Virus record (IMG/VR): IMGVR_UViG_3300044674_002114
Location: 1 to 45,074 of that record
DNA from: a virus
Lineage: Duplodnaviria > Caudoviricetes
Length of the DNA stretch: 45,074 nt
Strand: one strand, 5' to 3'
In this document: positions 1,779 to 23,668 of the stretch, piece by piece
How positions within the stretch are numbered: the stretch's first letter is position 1
How the letters are laid out: the number at the start of each line of letters is the position of its first letter
Program-made: the position numbers and the translations under genes
The notes under the pieces: generated by a model
Databases searched by the model: none
The model's input: only the letters and a program-made list of their open reading frames with translations
Told to the model about the DNA's origin: nothing

Positions 1779-4417
1779 TGGCAAAAGGATCTGCACCAGT
1801 ATCTCGTCTTTCCAAGGAGTACAATCCCAACACTCTGAAGAAGGAGCTTGACCGCATTAGCCGTGCGGTTAATCGCATCTCTGCGAAGAACGAGGACATT
1901 GACAATCGCATCTCTCGTGAGATCGTAGCCGTGCGCAAAAGTGTTGACATTGCAACACAGTTTTCTGATGTGCAGTATTTCACGGAGTGGTACGAGGAGG
2001 AGTCCCTTGGCAAGAAGTATGCTGTTGCTAAGCTCGCCTTTGTGTCCGGATGGGGCAAGGTTGCTGATGTCCAGTATCGACACGCCGAATACGGCAACAC
2101 CCCCGAGACAGAGACTTGGACTGGGCTGCTCACCAGTCCCACGTCTATTGAATGGGTAGAGGACGATGGCACTGGGGAGATAAACTACCCTCAGGGGGGA
2201 TACTATCGCTTCCGGGCAGAGATACCTAAGTATGTATCACGAGAACGAAAAGCAGGATTTCAGGTCCATATTAGAGCCGTTGATGCTGGTGGGTATGCGC
2301 TAGTACAAGAAAGCAACGTATTCGATGTGGACAGGCTTCCGGACGTAATGTCCATGTCGTTGCGCGTTGGCGAGTACGATGGGGCCAACTGGAATGTATA
2401 TGCTACGGGCCAGTGTGACCTAGACAGCTTGTCTGTTGGGCTTAGTGTGCGATCTAGCATAGGCACGACAGGCGCTATTGCCGTAAACAACACGCCAACC
2501 ATCACCCTTAATTTTACCACGCTGTCATACGACCTGTACATTGGCGACGTAGTAAGTATAGGGGCATATTCTTTTGTAATATCCCAAGACGTATCTGCTG
2601 GATCTGGGGTCACTGTGACTGCAGACGCCTCTGGCCCGAGCGATGCGATAGCTTCCGGCACCCCCGCGTATGCCCATTGGAGCTCTGACGAGGACAACCT
2701 GTCGAGCCTTGGCTTTAGTGACTACCAGCAGGATCTTACCGCCAGCAACAAAAACTTTGATGTTTTAATTGGGCAGTATGCTCCGGGTGTCCCTGTTTTT
2801 GCCATTGCCGCAGCATTTAATGAGCTGTCACTGGCTGGCGACTCAAGCGACAAGCTGTATCAGCGTGCAACAATCACAACGCCACAGCCAGAGTATACGT
2901 TTGACGCAGCTGTAGAGATCAACGATGGGGACATTACTGCGAACATGCTTGCTAGCGCATCGCAGAGGGCGTCGGTAAAGATAGACTTGGCCCACAAGGG
3001 CTTTACTACTGCGCTAGAGGACATCCTTACGTACAGCGGCACGATCACATGGGGAGACGGAACGGAGTACACCCTCTCCTCAGGCGACATTCCCAACGGC
3101 ACGCCACCAGTGCCAACAACGCCACAGACGCTATACTATATATTCCATGATCCAGACTCCTCTACGGATAACGACTCGTCTATACACACGGTATCCGATC
3201 CGGAGACAGACCTGCAGATAACCTCCGATGAGAACCTTGCCGGTGATATATCTGGAAGAAGGATTCTTGTAGGCGTTTATTCTGTAGGTACAGAGAACGG
3301 GGAGGCAGCATATTTTGTGTCGAACACAAAGGTGTCGATCACAGCCCCATTTATTTACGCCGCCAAGCTGTCTGCCCTGAGCGCAGACATGGGCACGCTT
3401 ACGGCTGGGAATATAGCCATAACGGCGACTGTGGAGTGGGGGGCCGTTGCTGGCACGGCTGATGCGCCAGAAGACAACGCAACTTTGGGGGCTAGCTGGA
3501 CTGGAAACCTAGCCGACATCCCAGTACGATTTGATACGGGTAATGCCCCAGCAGCATCCGGTCTTTATGCTTCGCCGGATTACTTTGGCTTTTACGACTC
3601 CTCTACCGCCTCGTGGAAGACGTACATGGATTCCTCTGGCAATTTTGCCTTGTCGGGATCTGGAACTGACTTTATGAGCTGGAACTCGGCAGCATCAACC
3701 CTCTCAATACAGGGCCAGATGACGCTTACGGCTGGGTCGTCTGTTGATTTCGACGACGTGACCGGCACAAACAAGCCGGAAGACGGGGCTACTTTTGGCG
3801 CGGATTGGAATGGGGAGATTAGCAATCTTCCAAGCGCGGCATCTAACATAGCGGACTCGGATAGCCCGGCGTCAAGTGGCTTGTATTTAGCCCCAAGCTA
3901 CTTAGGGTTCTGGGACGCCGCATCCTCAACATGGAAGGCGTACATAGATAGCTCCGGAAACTTTGGGCTTGCTGGCGATGCCAACAATAGTGTTACGTGG
4001 AACGGCACGAACTTCAGCGTCTCAACGACAGGCACGTTCACGCACAAGAATGTATCAACCGGCAAAACGGCTACCCTTATAAACGGGATATTTAACTGCG
4101 GGGGCCCCGCTACTGCCTTTTATGACGGAAGCTCTGCCACAATAAATTTCTCTGGGAGCAGTACTGCCTTTCTGGACGGGAGCTTCCTTCATATAACCGG
4201 AGGATCTGCTGACATTCGGCTTGGGAATATCTTGACGCCTCCATTTGTTCTTAATGCTAGCTCTATAACAAGGACTGGCGACTTCACAATATCAGCCACT
4301 ACTGACATTAACCTGTCTGCTGGCGGCAACATAAACTTGGGATCCCTTCCAACCTCATCCACTGGGCTATCTGCGGGCGATTTGTGGAACGACGCAGGCA
4401 CAGTCAAGATAGTCTAG
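1778..4417 (+). CDS. Tail spike/fibre-like virion protein, 879 aa
   Basis: N-terminal coiled coil, Ser/Thr/Gly beta-rich body, AAKLSALSADMGTLTAG motif, two ~80-aa internal repeats (PED.AT.GA.W..SGLY..P.Y.GF.D....WK.Y.DSSGNF), C-terminal LPTS..GDLWNDAGTVKIV; TAATG overlap with the upstream gene. Confidence 0.6.
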   Translation: MAKGSAPVSRLSKEYNPNTLKKELDRISRAVNRISAKNEDIDNRISREIVAVRKSVDIATQFSDVQYFTEWYEEESLGKKYAVAKLAFVSGWGKVADVQYRHAEYGNTPETETWTGLLTSPTSIEWVEDDGTGEINYPQGGYYRFRAEIPKYVSRERKAGFQVHIRAVDAGGYALVQESNVFDVDRLPDVMSMSLRVGEYDGANWNVYATGQCDLDSLSVGLSVRSSIGTTGAIAVNNTPTITLNFTTLSYDLYIGDVVSIGAYSFVISQDVSAGSGVTVTADASGPSDAIASGTPAYAHWSSDEDNLSSLGFSDYQQDLTASNKNFDVLIGQYAPGVPVFAIAAAFNELSLAGDSSDKLYQRATITTPQPEYTFDAAVEINDGDITANMLASASQRASVKIDLAHKGFTTALEDILTYSGTITWGDGTEYTLSSGDIPNGTPPVPTTPQTLYYIFHDPDSSTDNDSSIHTVSDPETDLQITSDENLAGDISGRRILVGVYSVGTENGEAAYFVSNTKVSITAPFIYAAKLSALSADMGTLTAGNIAITATVEWGAVAGTADAPEDNATLGASWTGNLADIPVRFDTGNAPAASGLYASPDYFGFYDSSTASWKTYMDSSGNFALSGSGTDFMSWNSAASTLSIQGQMTLTAGSSVDFDDVTGTNKPEDGATFGADWNGEISNLPSAASNIADSDSPASSGLYLAPSYLGFWDAASSTWKAYIDSSGNFGLAGDANNSVTWNGTNFSVSTTGTFTHKNVSTGKTATLINGIFNCGGPATAFYDGSSATINFSGSSTAFLDGSFLHITGGSADIRLGNILTPPFVLNASSITRTGDFTISATTDINLSAGGNINLGSLPTSSTGLSAGDLWNDAGTVKIV

Positions 4418-5978: not shown

Positions 5979-8900
5979 ATGGAGCCACGCAGTAGCCCAT
6001 ACGAAGAAATCGGGATGGCCTCTGCTAGCCCAGACTTCCTTCAGTACGCCAGTCAGCCCGGCGTTACTCGTCCTCAGATGTATGAGTACCTGAAGACGAC
6101 GCGGCCAGACACGGTTGCCGCTGCAGAAAACGAGCTGAAGCGAAGTCTGGAGGAGGATGACGACACTGGCTTTCTGTCCAGCCTTGGTAATTTTATTAGC
6201 ACGTCTACCAAGATAGGCGGCCTAGCAGCCGTTACTATGGGGCAGCTAGTGACAGGCTTGGGCGCGGCTGTCGAGCAGGGTTTATTTGGTCCCCCAGAAG
6301 GGGATGACGCATATCGCCCGATGCAGAACAAGCTGTTGCTCCTTCGGATGGCGCAGCAATACTTATCTGCAGATGAGGAGATAGCCAGAGGCAATGCTAG
6401 CATCGAGGCTCGCAAGCAGAAGAGAAAGCAAGAGAGGGAGGATGCGGGCTACGAGGCCGAGTACATGCCCATGGTAGATCCCCTGACGGGCGTGACCATT
6501 GTGCCGGAGGCTTCTGAGTTTGTTGCAGACGTTGCCACGGATGTTGCCGACTACGTATCTGCGGCTACAGAAACTATTATCGACGACCCCGCTGGCGGTG
6601 CAGCCTCTGTTGGTTCGCTTGCCGCCCAAACGCTGCCTACCGTAGCAGCTTCCATGGCTGCCTATGCGACAGCTGGGCCTGCTGGCGGCCTTGTGGCTGG
6701 CTCGTTGATGGAGATAGGCGGCCAGTTTTCAGATGCACTGGTAGACCAAGAGACTGGCGGCATCCGAGAGTTGACGGGAAGAGATGCGGCCTTGGCTATC
6801 TCTACCGGAACCCTTGCTGGTATGGTCGAAATGATTGGTGCTAGAGGTGCGGTAAAGGCCATTGGCTCTCTTGCCGATAGCGCGGCACTATCCTCTGGCA
6901 TGAAGAAGGCGTTTAAGCGCGAGCTTATTAACGACGTTATGCAGATTGCCAAGTCTGGCGGCACGGAAGGTGTCACCGAGGCAATCCAGACCGTTATAAC
7001 AAACATCGGGGCAAAGTACGGGTGGGATCCAGACAGGGTTTACACCGAGGGTGTTGGGGAGTCTTTCGTCGCCGGTCTTATTGCCTCCGGAGCAACGGTT
7101 ACAGCCGGAAAAGGAATCTCGTCTGTCGGCAACAGGCTGTCTCCAAGCACTGCGGACATCAGGGATGGTCGCCAGCAGCTGCCCACGCCTGCCGCAGACC
7201 CCGCAATGGTGCAGCAGATACAGGAGGCTGCTACACAGCTTGACAACAATCAGCTTATCGAGGTTGTAGAGGCCGCAGAAGAGGGTGACATTCGGGGCGA
7301 CATCGCCGCACAGGAGCTGGCCAATAGAGAAGATATTGTTAATGCGGATCCAGAAGGGGCTGCATTGGAGTATGAGCAACTAAGCACACAAAAAAAGGTT
7401 ATCAAAGATGGAGCCGAAGCAGCAGCAGAGCCAGCCGCAGAGCCAGCCGCAACCCCAGAAGCAGCAGGAGAGCCAGCCGCAGAAGAGGCAGCTCCCGCCA
7501 TTCAAGTTCGACAGGGAGGGGTGGGAGAAGGAGAAGCAGAAAATGTCGGAGGCACAGTTGAGGATGGTGGAAGCCTTCAACTTGTAAGGAGGGGTGATGA
7601 GACATCTGCGGTAAAGACAGATTATAGCATCACGCCGCAGGGCTTGGGGACAAGGAGGGTTCTCGAGCTGTCTGAAGAAGAGGGGCCAGCCTACTTCAGG
7701 TCGTCCATGGTTTCCGCGCTAGAGGCCAACCCCTATCGCGTAGCTGTTGACGTATACGATGACTACTCTGGCATTAAGGTTTTTGTTAGTGAAGACTCTC
7801 AGGCTGGCGTGGCCGTAAAGCCTGACGGAGACATTGTATCGGTCTTTTCTTCTGGCGCAAGCAACAAAGGCTTTGTTGAATATGGACTTAATGCGGCTGT
7901 AGCGAATGGGGGCACGCACCTAGACGCATACGACACTGTGCTGCCGATTCTGTATGGCATGTCTGGATTCAGAGCCGTTGCTAGGGTTCCCTTTAATGAC
8001 GAATACGCACCTCCGGGGTGGGACTATGACCTGTTTGGGGAATACAATGGCGGTCGCCCAGATGTAGTGTTTATGGTTTACGACCCAGAAAACGCATCTC
8101 CATACAAGGCGGGAGACGGCGTTATGGTTGAGTCGTATGAACAGGGTCAGGCGCTGCAGAGGCAAGAGGTAGACAAGATTCAGGGCCAGTATGCCCCACC
8201 CGGCCCAACGGCATCCGTGTCTGCTAGAGTTAGGTACGCTGACGTGTACCAGAAGATGGCCGCCAAGTCGGATGAGGAAATAGTTTCTGCTGGTAGCGAC
8301 CCGCAGGCGTCCCCGGTAGTTGTAGCGGCAGCCTTCAACCATGCGGTATCTAGGGGTCTAGACGCTCAGGTTCAGCGCCCGCCTATATATATGCCCACCC
8401 GCCAATTCGCCCCAGACGCAGAGATGTCGCAGATTAGCGATGTCGATCTGGTGGACATGGCAGACAGGATGGGTATTCCGGATGCGGCAAACCAGAACCC
8501 AATTATACTTCGGGGCAAGATGTCTGATGCCCTCTACTCCGGATCTGTTGTAGACACTATTCCAGCCGGGGCCACGATGGATCAGTCGCTGGATCACGTC
8601 GCGGTTCACAGCCAGAACAGGTATGAAGTGCTAGATGCTATGGTTATTGCCAGAGAGCAGGGCACTCAGTCAGAAATATATCAGAAGCTGTCTAGCAGAT
8701 ACACGGAACTCACCGGCAAAGCTCCGTCATCTATGGAGCAGCGCCAGTGGGACCGCGTTCGCAATAGCACGCTGTATCAAAATGCACAGCTCAGTGAAGA
8801 CCTTCCGGCAATAGCGTCTACATTCCTGTCGAGAACAGGCGTGGACATGAGCCAAGCTACCTATGCCGAGCTAGAAGCGATGGCAGACGATGTTATGCTT

Positions 8901-12540: not shown

Positions 12541-13407
12541 ATGTGGACCGTAGATAGGCTTGGACCCGATGCGCACGAGATTAGATTTGAAGCCGCCTAC
12601 ACCAATTCCGAATGGGAGCAGTGGCTTCTGATAACAGGAGACCGCCACTGGGACAACAGGCACTCTGACTGGGATCTGCAAAAGAGACACCTTGAGCTAG
12701 CAAAAGAGAGGAACGCACCCGTCATAGATGTCGGCGACTTCTTCTGCCTGATGCAGGGAAAGTATGACCGGCGCAAGTCATCGGATGCACTGCGCTCTAT
12801 CCACCGTGGGGAAGAGTATTTCGACGATGTGCCGAACACGGCGGTAGACTTCTTTAAGCCGTATGCCCACCAGCTGGCAGTCATTGGTCATGGCAACCAC
12901 GAGACGTCTATTATCAAGCACCACCAAACAGATGTTCTAGCACGCTTTGCCTACACCCTAAACAAAGAGGCTGGTAGCAATGTGCAGGTGGGTGGATACG
13001 GAGGATACATCAAGCTCAGGTTCGTGGACGAAACAAACAGCAACCGAAAGTCGCTATGGCTTCGGTATCACCATGGGCATGGAGGAGGAGGAAGGGTCAC
13101 TCGTGGAACCCTTATCTCACAGCGCAACGCAGAGATATACGGCGATGCTGACATTGTTGTGACTGGTCACATACACGAGCGCTGGCGCATGGAGATTGTC
13201 CGCGAGAAGATAACGGACTACGGAAAGGTTGTTCTCAAGCCGCAGATCCACCTGTGTACATCAACATACAAGCAGGAGTACAACTTGTCGGGTGGATTCC
13301 ACTATGAACGCGGAGCACCACCAAAGCCTCTCGGCGGTTGGTGGGTCCGGTTCACGTGGGACAGGGCGTCACAGCATGTAGTCTTCCAAACGATGGAGAC
13401 GCTCTGA
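12541..13407 (+). CDS. Calcineurin-like metallophosphoesterase
   Basis: All five motifs present: GDRH, VGDFF, GNHE, HHGHG, GHIHE. Confidence 0.85.
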   Translation: MWTVDRLGPDAHEIRFEAAYTNSEWEQWLLITGDRHWDNRHSDWDLQKRHLELAKERNAPVIDVGDFFCLMQGKYDRRKSSDALRSIHRGEEYFDDVPNTAVDFFKPYAHQLAVIGHGNHETSIIKHHQTDVLARFAYTLNKEAGSNVQVGGYGGYIKLRFVDETNSNRKSLWLRYHHGHGGGGRVTRGTLISQRNAEIYGDADIVVTGHIHERWRMEIVREKITDYGKVVLKPQIHLCTSTYKQEYNLSGGFHYERGAPPKPLGGWWVRFTWDRASQHVVFQTMETL

Positions 13408-14023: not shown

Positions 14024-14420
14024 TGTCTTCGTGTGTTTTGTCGTAGTGTTCTATTGCCTGTCGCATGTGCGACGTTATCGCGGAGTGCGCCTCCTCGAAT
14101 GAGTAACACACCTCGGTCCTGTACCCAGCATCTTCGAGTCTAGCAAGCCACTCCTTCTGATTCTTGCTCGGTCGGTTGGGCTTGATCTTCATCTCGATAA
14201 ACAGTCCAGCGTGTCGCTCGGTCGGAGCCGCGCAGAAGATGTCCGGCACACCTCTCCGGACACCCTCTGCCTTCAGCTTCCTTGCTACGGATACATGCCT
14301 GTGCCCACCGTTGGGTATGGCAAAGATGTTGTTCCATAGCATGTGTGCACCGGCACACTGCTCTAGCCATTTAAACAGGATGACCTGCTCGTGATGCTCT
14401 AGGTCTTGTCGCTTAGCCAC
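13998..14420 (-). CDS. VRR-NUC domain nuclease
   Basis: EH.EQ, FAIPNGG.R, GVRRGVPD, FIEMK, Q.EW..L..GY motifs. Confidence 0.9.
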   Translation of the reverse strand: MAKRQDLEHHEQVILFKWLEQCAGAHMLWNNIFAIPNGGHRHVSVARKLKAEGVRRGVPDIFCAAPTERHAGLFIEMKIKPNRPSKNQKEWLARLEDAGYRTEVCYSFEEAHSAITSHMRQAIEHYDKTHEDNGKDTEPV

Positions 14421-14838
14421 GGTTCAGTCTTGCGTTGATGAGATCTGCCGCGTCCATCATGTCGTATCCACGGCTTTTCAGAATGTCTACTGACGCCTTG
14501 ATATTCTTGAGCACCTCCCTTTCGTGGTGAGCTCCACTTGCGCTAGGCATAAGCGCTATGCTAAGGTATCCATCAATGGTTCTAGCGGCATGTATAACTG
14601 TCGTGTGGTCTCTTCCACCGAAGCTCTTGCCAATATCAGCTAGGGACAAGTGCCTCAGGCAGACACATATCCACATGGCGATATGCCTAGCCGTGACGAC
14701 TGCCTGAAACCTCCTCTTGCCCACGATCTCATCCTGCGGTATTCCGCATACACCGGCGACAACAAACTTGACCTCTTCCGGGGTCGGTATGTTTTTGCCA
14801 GCGCCGATGGCTTCGTCTATCATTTGATTGGTAATCAC
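14413..14838 (-). CDS. Stand-alone DnaA domain IV (Bac_DnaA_C) DNA-binding protein
   Basis: GKRR..VVTARHIAM..SLADIGKSFGGRDHTTVIHA DnaA signature with no AAA+ domain; GTG start preceded by AAGGAGG. Confidence 0.9.
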   Translation of the reverse strand: MITNQMIDEAIGAGKNIPTPEEVKFVVAGVCGIPQDEIVGKRRFQAVVTARHIAMWICVCLRHLSLADIGKSFGGRDHTTVIHAARTIDGYLSIALMPSASGAHHEREVLKNIKASVDILKSRGYDMMDAADLINARLNRG

Positions 14839-16106: not shown

Positions 16107-16126
16107 TGCCGCCTTACGGGGCGGCA
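16107..16126 (-). promoter_or_regulatory. CCGUAA-loop hairpin, copy 6
   Basis: tgccgcc CCGTAA ggcggca on the - strand, 16 nt before ATG 16090. Confidence 0.8.
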
Positions 16127-20146: not shown

Positions 20147-20188
20147 TGTCTTGGTAGGGTTGTGCCACCTTACGGGGTGGCTGGTGTG
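20144..20188 (-). repeat. 45-nt perfect direct repeat, copy A (contains CCGUAA hairpin 20164-20181, leader and ATG)
   Basis: Identical to 20424-20468. Confidence 0.95.
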
Positions 20189-20426: not shown

Positions 20427-20468
20427 TGTCTTGGTAGGGTTGTGCCACCTTACGGGGTGGCTGGTGTG
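20424..20468 (-). repeat. 45-nt perfect direct repeat, copy B (contains CCGUAA hairpin 20444-20461)
   Basis: Identical to 20144-20188. Confidence 0.95.
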
Positions 20469-20815: not shown

Positions 20816-20833
20816 GCCGCGTTACGGCGCGGC
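20816..20833 (-). promoter_or_regulatory. CCGUAA-loop hairpin, copy 3
   Basis: gccgcg CCGTAA cgcggc, 17 nt before ATG 20798. Confidence 0.8.
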
Positions 20834-20843
20834 TGGTGTGTGT

Positions 20844-21044
20844 TTATCGGTTGTCACCCTGTCGGCGCAGGGAGGTCTCAATCTGAGTCAGCGCCTCCCC
20901 CTCAAGGGGCGTGATCTCATACTCCTCCTGAAGCCTGAGCCTCATCTCTCGAAATATGTAGCGAAACTGCTCATCTGAGGCGGTCCATACGGCTTCGTAG
21001 ATAGACAGCATGTCGACGGGATCGATGTTGTGCGTGGTTTCCAT
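20844..21044 (-). CDS. Small hypothetical early protein
   Basis: Preceded by AAAACACACACGACC. Confidence 0.7.
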   Translation of the reverse strand: METTHNIDPVDMLSIYEAVWTASDEQFRYIFREMRLRLQEEYEITPLEGEALTQIETSLRRQGDNR

Positions 21045-21106
21045 GGTCGTGTGTGTTTTGTGGTGTGTGTAGGTGTGTTACGAGGTGTGAATCGGTTGGT
21101 TCCCGG

Positions 21107-21293: not shown

Positions 21294-21395
21294 CTATCCG
21301 ATGATGGTTCTGATGATGAAGTAGGCTGTGCCAAGCGTGAGCCCGGCGAGGCATACGCGGTCTAGCACGCGGCATATTTTGTCGATAGGTGCCAT
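21294..21395 (-). CDS. 33-aa putative membrane peptide
   Basis: MAPIDKICRVLDRVCLAGLTLGTAYFIIRTIIG after the leader AAACACACACGACC; first ORF 3' of the ribozyme. Confidence 0.6.
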   Translation of the reverse strand: MAPIDKICRVLDRVCLAGLTLGTAYFIIRTIIG

Positions 21396-21437
21396 GGTCG
21401 TGTGTGTTTGTGTGTTTGTCTGCGGGTTCGGGTGTCG

Positions 21438-21491
21438 AGCCTCGTCAGCGCTGGCGATACCAGCGGACGGTCTTACGGGACCGTTTCGGCT
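21438..21491 (-). ncRNA. Type II hammerhead self-cleaving ribozyme
   Basis: AGCC-GAAA-CGGUC(CCGUAA)GACC-GUC^-CGCUGG(UAUCG)CCAGCG-CUGACGA-GGCU: all core nucleotides and three Watson-Crick stems; cleavage predicted between 21466 and 21465. Confidence 0.92.
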
Positions 21492-21499
21492 TGGTTGGT

Positions 21500-22381
21500 T
21501 TAGGCGTAGAAGTCCGCGAGGTCGGCATGCCCGACCGTGCCCAGCATGGTGAGCATGTGCTCCTTGACGCTGTTGTGTTGGCTGTCCCGGTCGATGGACC
21601 CGATGACGGCGTTGGCGTCTAGCACATTGGCGAGCTCGCCTAGGTCCCAGTTGACCTTGCCGTAGCCGGGCGTCAGCTTTTCGAGGGTTGTCTTGCCGCC
21701 CGAGAGCTCGTGCACCATTGCCTCGTCCACGCGGAACATGCCACGGCGAAACCAGCTTGGGCAGACCAGCGTCTTGATGAAGCGCTCCACGTCGAGGGGC
21801 TCGTCGGCACGCTTGATCGGCACAACCGAGTTGAGGTACTTCTTGCCGGTCGGCTTGACGAACGTGTCGTGATAGCTCGAGTAAGCAACCAGTAGCTCGA
21901 CGCGGTAGCCGTTGGACTCGAGCAGGTCGACCGTGCATGCTAGAGCCACGCCGTAGCGGACCATGCTGTCCGTGCTGGTCCATCCAGCCACGGCACCACC
22001 GGCGAGGATGGTGATAATGTTGCCGGTGCCCTCGATCTCCTCGAGGCGGTAGTCTAGCATGTTCTCGGGCTCACCGTCCACGTAGCGACCCATGTCGACC
22101 ACGGACCCGCACACGTCGAAGGCGGCTTCGAAGGACTCGACCACGGGCGCATTGATCGGCACGCCGCTGTCGCGTCTAGCGTCTGCGAATTGCTTGCGAC
22201 CGTCTGCCCATCCGGTGGTCATGAGCTCGACGTGGTGGTCCCAGTCGCGGGAGAAGGCGAAGCCCTCGCTGTTGTCCTTGGATGAATCCCAAGGAGCCTT
22301 GCTGTTCGTGCCGTAGGACACGGCGTCCTCGATGCTGTCGAAGATGAAGGTGTTGCTGGTGGCTGTCTTGATGCGTTTCAT
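21500..22381 (-). CDS. MoxR partner, degenerate VWA-like protein
   Basis: DVCGS.VDMGRY..GEPE.M and L...VDLLE..GYRVEL pattern; immediately downstream of the AAA gene. Confidence 0.55.
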   Translation of the reverse strand: MKRIKTATSNTFIFDSIEDAVSYGTNSKAPWDSSKDNSEGFAFSRDWDHHVELMTTGWADGRKQFADARRDSGVPINAPVVESFEAAFDVCGSVVDMGRYVDGEPENMLDYRLEEIEGTGNIITILAGGAVAGWTSTDSMVRYGVALACTVDLLESNGYRVELLVAYSSYHDTFVKPTGKKYLNSVVPIKRADEPLDVERFIKTLVCPSWFRRGMFRVDEAMVHELSGGKTTLEKLTPGYGKVNWDLGELANVLDANAVIGSIDRDSQHNSVKEHMLTMLGTVGHADLADFYA

Positions 22382-22398: not shown

Positions 22399-22418
22399 GC
22401 TGGCGTTACGGCGCCTGC
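22399..22418 (-). promoter_or_regulatory. CCGUAA-loop hairpin, copy 1
   Basis: gc-a-ggcg CCGTAA cgcc-a-gc, 17 nt before ATG 22381. Confidence 0.7.
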
Positions 22419-22428
22419 GGGTGTGTGA

Positions 22429-23577
22429 TTAGAGGGATGCTTTGAGGCTGGCGCGCTCGTCAGCTCCGAGGGCTGACAGGAGCACGAGGTCCAGCGCCTC
22501 ATCCTTGCTGAAGCCAGCGGCGAGAGCACGGGCTCCACGGATCTTGGCACGAGTGCCGATGGTGACGCGCAGACCGGTCTCGACGGCGCGGTCGCGTAGC
22601 TTGTCGATGGTCTCGATCCAGTCGGTGGCATCCTCCGTGCTGGCACCCTGCGCCAGTGTGAGCTCACGCTCGAAGTCGAGGTCGTACGACCAGTCGATCC
22701 AAAACATGCGGTCCAGCGTGCTGGCATCCTGCTGGCGTCCACCCACGTACTCGCGGGATGCGCCGCGTCCGGTGGTGTTCATGGCAACCACGACCCGGAA
22801 GTCGGGGTGCTTCTCGACCTTGCCGTGAGGGAACTCGACCACGGTGGTGTCGGAGTCGAGGATGCCGTTCATCTGCTTCGAGACGCCGGGGTGGCAGGTG
22901 TCGTACTCGTCCAGCAGGAGCACGTGCCCCTCCGTGATAGCACGCGCCACGGTGTCTTTGCGATGCTGACCGTTGGCATCGACGAAGCCGAAGATGTCGG
23001 ACGCGCTGGTCTGCGCACCCACCGAGATGGCAGTGAACGCCTGACCGTACGCCTTGGCGGCGGCACGGGCGGCTGACGTCTTTCCGGACCCGGCTGGACC
23101 GACGAGCGCCACTGTGCCAAGGGCGAGAGCCTTGACCAGCTTGTCGAAGTGCGGGTGCTGGCGTCCCACGTCCACGGTCGGACGGTCGGGGATGACCACC
23201 TCGACGGTGCGTGCTGGCATGCTGGCGAGCTGTTCCTGCACGATGGACACCACGGCGTCCCGGTCGATGCTGGCAGGTTGCTGACCCATGAGCCCACGGA
23301 GCCCGGCGAAGAGCAGGTCGGCAGGGTCGGACCCTAGGGGCTGGACGCCCGGTGCTGGCACGGTGTTGCCGTGGTTGAGACCGCTGACCAGCGCATCGAT
23401 CATTGCGTCCTTGCGTGCACTGGCAACCCACGTGGTGCCGTCAGGGTGGTCGGCGAAGTTGATGCGGCATGCCTCTCGCAGTGCGTTGGCTGACCGGTTC
23501 TGTAGGACGGTGCGCAGGGCGTTCTCGTCGTAGCTACCGGCTTCGTACTTGCGGATGATGGAGATGATGGGGTTCAT
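22429..23577 (-). CDS. MoxR/CbbQ/CobS-like AAA+ ATPase (AAA_5)
   Basis: Walker A GPAGSGKT, Walker B LLLDEYD, HPDFRVV.AMNT.G, D.STLDR arginine finger. Confidence 0.9.
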   Translation of the reverse strand: MNPIISIIRKYEAGSYDENALRTVLQNRSANALREACRINFADHPDGTTWVASARKDAMIDALVSGLNHGNTVPAPGVQPLGSDPADLLFAGLRGLMGQQPASIDRDAVVSIVQEQLASMPARTVEVVIPDRPTVDVGRQHPHFDKLVKALALGTVALVGPAGSGKTSAARAAAKAYGQAFTAISVGAQTSASDIFGFVDANGQHRKDTVARAITEGHVLLLDEYDTCHPGVSKQMNGILDSDTTVVEFPHGKVEKHPDFRVVVAMNTTGRGASREYVGGRQQDASTLDRMFWIDWSYDLDFERELTLAQGASTEDATDWIETIDKLRDRAVETGLRVTIGTRAKIRGARALAAGFSKDEALDLVLLSALGADERASLKASL

Positions 23578-23638: not shown

Positions 23639-23668
23639 ACAATACGGCGCTAGAGCAACACGTGTCAA
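23639..23668 (-). promoter_or_regulatory. Sigma70-type early promoter
   Basis: TTGACA (23668-23663), 18-nt spacer, TATTGT (23644-23639); about 60 nt upstream of the first early gene. Confidence 0.65.

Follow-up and report, generated by a model that had tools for sequence, protein, structure and literature searches.

A short-loop type II hammerhead ribozyme between early phage genes, with a tail predicted to pair over its core

In phage T7, RNase III sites between the early genes cut the early polycistronic RNA and leave structured ends. Ribozymes located between phage genes, and the idea that they process mRNA, have already been published. The type II hammerheads of bacteria and prophages (Rfam RF02276) occur between varied phage genes, with several copies per genome, and were proposed to act in mRNA processing (Perreault et al. 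2011, PMC3088659). Tandem type II hammerheads from prophages are active in cleavage both in vitro and within E. coli (PMC3088659), and three type II hammerheads from D. vulgaris cleave in vivo (PMC8782182). Cleavage by a hammerhead leaves a 2',3'-cyclic phosphate on the upstream end and a 5'-OH on the downstream end (PMC8782182). The role of bacterial and phage self-cleaving ribozymes has been called an open question (PMC6765202, PMC6155905).

We analyzed the whole of a 45,074-base phage contig (the window), whose genes include a P22-like portal, an SU10-type capsid protein and a large terminase with best matches among cultured phages of only ~25%. A gene run on the - strand extends from a sigma-70-like site near 23668 down to 13478. 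The promoter candidate that heads this early run (23639..23668, - strand) has 10 of 12 consensus matches and is the best of 6 sites, but it is weak on its own because 4.4 sites are expected by chance in the region. No terminator-like sites were found on the - strand from the promoter candidate to 17205. The first gene of the run codes for an AAA_5 ATPase (phrog_249, 22429..23577, - strand), and a DUF7192 gene (phrog_1909, 21500..22381, - strand; PF23822, E 1.9e-32) lies downstream of it. The DUF7192 protein had no significant match when the PDB was searched by sequence. Its structural model (pLDDT 92) shows a VWA-like fold, and NorD VWA domains are the best PDB fold matches (E 1.5e-5, TM only 0.26); the label "VWA-like", given in an earlier sequence-only reading of this DNA, is thus a fair one. 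The run continues with a 33-aa hydrophobic ORF (21294..21395, - strand) and a 66-aa ORF (20844..21044, - strand) that sits between repeated leaders. It also holds a gene for a stand-alone DnaA C-terminal helix-turn-helix (14413-14838, - strand), and a metallophosphoesterase-like gene on the + strand (12541-13407) faces its end.

Directly downstream of the DUF7192 gene, the - strand (the mRNA sense) carries a type II hammerhead at 21438..21491. Its letters read as described earlier, with a perfect core and three stems. On this strand, a 4-bp open stem II pairs 21491-21488 with 21441-21438, and GAAA (21487-21484) precedes a 5-bp stem III hairpin with a CCGUAA loop (21483-21468). The GUC triplet at 21468-21466 provides the NUH element (U16.1 = 21467, C17 = 21466). 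A 6-bp stem I (21465-21460 with 21454-21449) is closed by the 5-nt loop I (21455..21459), and CUGACGA (21448-21442) supplies the CUGANGA core. All core elements of the hammerhead class are therefore present. Loops close stems I and III and leave stem II open, which is the type II permutation as defined in PMC3088659. The hammerhead consensus places the predicted scissile bond after C17, between 21466 and 21465, so that cleavage would leave a 5'-OH at 21465, as had been claimed. The upstream stop ends at 21500 and the motif starts at 21491, which agrees with the 8-nt spacing given in the earlier reading. An A/C-rich leader (21396..21419, - strand), unstructured as judged from its sequence and the fold of the 3' product, separates the element from the 33-aa gene. 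We saw no Shine-Dalgarno sequence in this leader.

We compared the motif to Rfam, a check that had been proposed. At an E limit of 1, the Hammerhead_II family RF02276 was the only Rfam family to match anywhere in the genome, yet its score of 33.6 bits (E 0.0038) falls below the gathering cut-off of 37. Consequently, Rfam at gathering scores gave no match across the window, and under the wider limit no other Rfam ribozyme turned up in the genome. A loose descriptor for type II hammerheads hit the real genome a single time and, taken together, 300 third-order Markov genomes a single time as well. When we built a model from 59 members, it found only 21438..21491, with a next best score of 12.9 bits, and we identified no second hammerhead in the genome. 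Stems in these 59 aligned members are compensated, with 99.4% of positions paired and 0 of 500 shuffles reaching this value, although the members had been chosen for pairing. Compensatory stem I and stem III variants are also present in close relatives, and the core is perfect in the window copy and in relatives. The nearest relative, L001, shows 0 of 83 differences to the window over 21420-21502. By comparison, 28 of 196 bases differ in the coding DNA on the upstream side, 6 of 24 in the leader that follows immediately downstream and 17 of 246 in the genes after it. Likeness to relatives begins at 21492 and ends at 21410-21425, and the element thus extends past the earlier limits of 21433..21491. 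The identity of this element as a hammerhead is real.

The window copy shares its core, its permutation and its location between varied phage genes with the RF02276 hammerheads, as well as the presence of several copies per genome in relatives. Unlike them, it lacks a loop I-tail pseudoknot of at least 4 bp, has fixed stem and loop sizes and scores below the family cut-off. Because it misses both the cut-off and the pseudoknot, we did not place it under the RF02276 consensus, though it is type II by core and permutation.

We gathered type II hammerheads by scanning viral, metagenome and genome collections for sequence patterns. Two of the scans that fed the sequence set covered 15 of 64 parts, so the subclass counts given here are samples from among the matches listed. 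From 53 metagenome matches we kept only those that passed a stem filter and discarded the remainder as chance. Among the matches listed, 165 unique sequences included 49 with a 17-nt stem I hairpin like that of the window and 110 with a longer one. The window copy belongs to the first group, a short-loop subclass with a fixed 6-bp stem I, a 5-nt loop and a 4-bp stem II. Enlarging this subclass gave at least 158 unique sequences, which thinning reduced to 44 representatives. When we sampled 20 loci, 4 of their 20 matches reached the RF02276 cut-off; long-loop sister copies score 61-62 bits. For one narrow pattern, we estimated ~520 viral stretches from the matches listed. The scan of genome collections placed the short-loop subclass in several phyla and found no prophage of the window's phage family. 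Searching cultured-phage DNA with 21400-21510 gave no match. Among the close relatives of the window copy, stem III comes in two types (with a CCGUAA or a UUCG loop), as does the stem I/tail part, and all four combinations were seen. Hammerhead arrays among small genes were also seen, with at least 8 pattern matches in L150 (1077-7039) and 9 descriptor matches each in L094 (2147-6417) and L104 (5740-8668). It may be that Perreault's type II alignment already holds the short-loop subclass (PMC3088659).

We examined how loop I might be anchored. The sequence-only reading had proposed a pseudoknot between loop I and the 3' tail. This proposal is unsupported: the UCG/CGA complementarity exists as sequence only, and the loop varies in close relatives (UAUCG, UAACG, UAGCG) while the tail stays CGA. 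At most 3 bp can form in the window copy, of which 2 are conserved in relatives. In the short-loop class, the best loop-tail helix averages 1.96 bp compared to 1.85 bp after shuffling, a value reached by 267 of 2000 shuffles (n=49, matches listed). The larger set of listed matches (n=158) gave a slight excess (1.96 vs 1.86, 16 of 500 shuffles), which vanished in the 44 thinned representatives of these matches (1.91 vs 1.86, 166 of 500 shuffles). The long-loop class (n=110, matches listed) has a mean best helix of 4.4 bp compared to 2.81 bp, with 0 of 2000 shuffles reaching it. At the level of sequence statistics, the long-loop class is clearly a class with a pseudoknot.

A different contact is predicted for the short-loop class. 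Position 1.7 of loop I and the base directly 5' of stem II form a reverse-Hoogsteen pair in the structures of type I and III hammerheads, where the second base is named L2.4 (PMC2632901, PMC11875169). The corresponding window bases are U21459 (U1.7), in a loop that fits the UNmYN motif of PMC2632901, and A21492, which lies beyond the earlier limits of the motif and is exactly where the likeness of relatives starts. Among the matches listed, this pair of positions is U/A in 147 of 158 short-loop sequences, A/U in 7 and other in 4. In the 92 newly added sequences among these matches, for which the search pattern fixed neither base, it is U/A in 90. The 7 swapped sequences stem from 4 loci (L111, L124, L163 and L205), where the U before stem II and the next two bases make a UAG triplet. 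A double U/A swap partly restored the activity of a viroid hammerhead (PMC2632901). The natural swap has other readings, since other positions shift too in the 8 sequences with A1.7. We predict from these counts that U21459 and A21492 form a reverse-Hoogsteen tertiary pair. The window copy thus shows an unpaired U1.7 and an A 5' of the stem II strand, as in the UNmYN-RNnA loop motif of type I and III hammerheads (PMC2632901, PMC6155905, PMC11875169), and in the subclass the U/A swap is found in nature. It lacks the purine that this motif places opposite the A at the loop 2 base and has C21437 instead. A purine is present at this position in 117 of 149 U1.7 members (matches listed), and C:A oppositions are found in natural hammerheads (PMC2632901). 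Fig. S5 of Perreault et al. already tallies the UNmYN-RNnA motif for type II ribozymes (PMC3088659), so the contact is no novelty there. Since stem II is open in the subclass, the docking A would be supplied by the spacer on the upstream side, in many cases by the stop codon, unlike in type I and III hammerheads.

The second distinguishing feature of the window copy is its tail. The - strand sequence at 21420..21448 is predicted to form an anti-core hairpin (-9.5 kcal/mol) in which the tail pairs onto CUGACGA and the 3' strand of stem II. In folding predictions this hairpin excludes the active fold. Predicted stem II pairing is 0.18-0.36 for transcripts with 3' ends at 21437-21428, ~0.1 at 21424 and 0 from 21420 onward. 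The same hairpin is predicted in both copies of L001, where identity to the window ends just beyond it, and in L005, L043 and L064. It folds weakly in the first copy of L013 and in one L172 copy. Across the subclass, 54 of 158 sequences have a U(C/U)AG motif within 30 nt of the core; the counts are 21 of 155 for the region further downstream and 14 of 158 for the one upstream (matches listed). In 48 of the 54, the base before this motif can form a Watson-Crick pair with core position 7 (33 C-G, 15 U-A). After thinning, 23 carriers remain, with 11 C-G, 7 U-A and 5 other combinations (Fisher p 3e-5).

We also scored the tails by folding. A core-tail hairpin of -4 kcal/mol or lower that includes position 7 as a paired base is predicted for 97 of 150 short-class sequences among the matches listed, compared to ~40 with shuffled tails; the pairs are 52 C-G, 41 U-A and 4 U-G. 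The same criterion gave 36 of 105 in the long class, compared to 28 with shuffled tails (matches listed). In the thinned short class, 22 of 44 sequences qualified (matches listed), compared to a shuffled mean of 12.1 and a maximum of 19 in 100 shuffles, and displaced tails gave 13 of 43. The count of 22 of 44 means that half of the members are without an anti-core hairpin. We regard the anti-core signal as real in these sequence comparisons, from which relatedness was only roughly removed, and as covering about half of the subclass. One sister lineage shows a two-sided change, with CGAGG/CCUCG in L002 and UGAGG/CCUCA in L071, L072 and L172. The lineage of the window itself conserves the hairpin, with wobble changes and no two-sided change. 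An expected tie between the tail and a stronger stem II appeared as a trend only (63 of 94 vs 25 of 49, p 0.07, not significant). A hammerhead on the opposite strand was considered as the source of the core complement and rejected, because by eye the reverse strand has no CUGANGA. The available portions of the 2011 type II account (PMC3088659) hold no description of a core-pairing tail. Our search of openly accessible literature, which included PMC10085705, likewise found none.

We asked which genes accompany these ribozymes. Among the matches listed, 98 of 119 hammerheads start no more than 20 nt from a stop codon that closes a sense ORF, compared to 15 of 115 in an antisense control, in a set whose search patterns favor stop-like bases. 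A stop codon ends 2-6 nt before GAAA in 116 of 157 short-class members (matches listed), and 97 of these 116 stops close an ORF of at least 30 aa or one open to the locus edge, compared to 1687 of 16550 (10%) in the control. The stop lies 12 nt from GAAA in the window copy. The element is thus intergenic, in mRNA sense and right after a stop, with neighbors that vary among relatives, as expected for punctuation. The slot after DUF7192 holds a short hammerhead in the window, L001, L043 and L064 and a long hammerhead in L014. In the cultured Tunturiibacter phage Tunturi_4 (PP885687.1), the slot after the DUF7192 stop of an AAA-DUF7192 pair holds a twister-P5 ribozyme (RF02684) of unrelated fold (54.9 bits, above cut-off). 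The Tunturi_4 genome (L350) contains three twister-P5 sites above the cut-off (2825-2882, 3748-3809 and 5983-6040) that are unannotated in the record, two of them flanking the DUF7192 gene. The words "ribozyme" and "twister" are absent from the main text of the isolation paper (PMC11924767). At 2 of 3 distant DUF7192 loci that we checked (L351, L352), no Rfam ribozyme follows the gene.

Comparison to relatives revealed gene exchange at these spacers. L001 contains an extra 82-aa gene and a second hammerhead upstream of its AAA gene (3462-3764), both absent from the window. This unit is flanked by direct repeats that are two copies of a leader present once in the window, and the stop codon of the 82-aa gene forms the first bases of the second hammerhead. 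The 66-aa gene is missing in L001 and directly follows a hammerhead in L019, and the 33-aa ORF is absent at the ribozyme junction in L043 and L064. Genes are gained and lost at these spacers. Near-identical ribozymes follow unrelated genes in sister phages, which removes the basis for tying the role of the ribozyme to the message of the AAA gene and its partner. We therefore read the ribozyme as generic punctuation moving along with gene cassettes and not as an AAA-VWA device. Beside the early cassette region of L013, a partial tmRNA match (1375-1454, - strand; 42.2 bits, cut-off 47) perhaps marks a host integration site.

The CCGUAA loop of stem III recurs in five start-associated hairpins on the - strand of the window, whose stems differ yet remain paired. 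A 4-bp hairpin (22402..22415) precedes the DUF7192 start. Hairpins of 6 bp lie at 20816..20833, 20444..20461 and 20164..20181, the last two identical in sequence, and one of 6-7 bp lies at 16108..16125. The loop ends 23-24 nt before the ATG in these five (23 nt for the copies at 20816, 20444 and 16108) and 21-27 nt before it in most copies family-wide. Of 188 six-pair hairpins in the genome, 5 have a CCGUAA loop, and any other loop occurs in at most 2. The free hairpins have no Rfam match. We rejected CCGUAA as a required part of the ribozyme because sister copies carry UUCG and only 7 of 165 stem III loops are CCGUAA (matches listed), all but one of these 7 in the window's phage family. A decayed CCGUAA hairpin (21065-21095, - strand) before the 66-aa gene keeps loop-like bases without a stem, also in L001. 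In L068 and L071, CCGUAA loops cap hairpins that resemble terminators, and a CUGUAA variant is present both in a ribozyme of L013 and in a free hairpin of L073. In L003, L019, L068 and L073, a conserved non-coding stretch of ~45 nt with a weak stem lies between the CCGUAA hairpin and the next start. The SAS/ESAS repeats of cluster K mycobacteriophages also occupy a set place before varied starts (PMC3203893). SAS is a sequence motif, and its authors judge the ESAS unlikely to be RNA hairpins (PMC3203893), whereas the CCGUAA hairpins have covarying stems and a recurring loop. By eye, the 13-bp Shine-Dalgarno-like consensus and the 17-bp inverted repeats of SAS/ESAS are absent from the window's spacers.

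From the sequence, its conservation and covariation, and the swapping of neighbors, we infer cleavage, the tertiary pair, refolding and any effect on stability or translation. Our preferred reading, to which we assign a probability of about 0.58, is that the ribozyme cuts after C21466, that docking relies on U21459-A21492 and not on a pseudoknot, and that the tail refolds over the core after the cut, which separates the pieces and prevents rejoining. Cutting of the polycistronic early RNA, as claimed before, is probable given the intact core and stems and the type II relatives that have been tested. In this model, the hammerhead would cut the long early transcript into an upstream product ending in the stem III hairpin and a cyclic phosphate, and a downstream product that opens with a 5'-OH and a stack of two hairpins located 24 nt ahead of the next AUG. 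Both new ends are predicted to be hairpin-capped, and the cut would differ from that at T7 RNase III sites in being self-made, with no host nuclease, and in leaving 5'-OH and cyclic phosphate ends. Whether a 5'-OH end stabilizes or destabilizes a message depends on the host nucleases, RNase E versus RNase J. The 4-bp stem II and the U-A pair would bridge the two products, and we infer that the pieces would otherwise stay joined and ready for ligation. Pairing of the tail over the core would release the products and block re-ligation, making the cut one-way. Tertiary contacts strongly favor ligation in hammerheads (PMC6155905). For the pseudoknot class, the contact is internal to the 3' product and tails that pair with the core show no enrichment, in keeping with the release idea.

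The tail could also act before the cut. Acting as an attenuator, it would permit cleavage only if the ribozyme folds before ~18 more bases are transcribed and would set the fraction that is cut, possibly governed by how fast the polymerase moves or by ribosomes at the stop close by. The predicted loss of stem II pairing as the transcript reaches 21420 and the closeness of most short-class stops to GAAA are consistent with such control, though the stop of the window copy is at a greater distance. Once the tail is made, the active fold lies 6.5 kcal/mol above the ensemble in the window copy, a high value for a subclass with a 90th percentile of 5.7, and the tail could therefore block cutting rather than follow it. 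These ViennaRNA energies leave out core and Mg contacts. Members without a UCAG tail still have a median gap of 2.2 kcal/mol, which suggests that the folding model understates the active fold and weakens the argument from the gap. The perfect core in the window copy and its relatives also speaks against an attenuator, and we consider this reading unlikely. The energies have a practical consequence. The transcript 21500-21420 that had been proposed for a cleavage test spans the whole predicted inhibitory hairpin and could give a false negative.

Other readings give the tail or the ribozyme a different part. The sequence-only reading saw a pseudoknotted hammerhead that parts the AAA-VWA message from the small genes and alters their relative stability. 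UCG and CGA are able to pair, and a ribozyme follows DUF7192 in 4 related loci and in Tunturi_4. The third loop position nevertheless varies against a fixed tail, the subclass has no clear loop-tail signal, the same CGA pairs inside the tail hairpin and the upstream genes vary freely, all of which makes this version improbable. The mapping of gene gains and losses to repeats, together with the mosaic of stem III and stem I/tail types in the family's ribozymes, would suit spacers that serve mainly as DNA recombination points for cassettes, with the ribozyme as a tolerated passenger of little effect on expression. Against this stand compensatory stems and a fixed core, which are RNA-level constraints, and an unrelated ribozyme class that occupies the same slot; we hold this to be quite improbable. 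A tail unrelated to catalysis, which masks the SD-like GAGG in the core or is another start-associated hairpin, seems very improbable. The distance from the end of the hairpin to the next ATG does have a median of 24 nt (n=84), similar to that of the CCGUAA hairpins, and several tails place CCUC opposite GAGG. Its commonest form, however, pairs with CUGAN and covaries with position 7, and the enrichment is found only in the pseudoknot-free class.

Apart from its tail, the window's single ribozyme is unremarkable for a setting that was described in 2011. The short-loop subclass mostly falls under the Rfam cut-off, so phage ribozymes are undercounted. Tunturi_4 and its host form a cultured pair in which ribozymes occupy this gene slot. 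We tentatively suggest, as a possibility that we do not favor strongly, that these ribozymes represent a widespread, under-annotated and pseudoknot-free type II subclass with a built-in off state, in which a core-covarying tail takes the ribozyme apart once it has cut or races it while the RNA is being transcribed. The stop codon would often provide the docking A, and termination and tail folding would together set the cutting of cassettes. A tail that covaries with the core would show selection on the events around the cut, such as one-way release or partial cleavage, and not on cutting alone.
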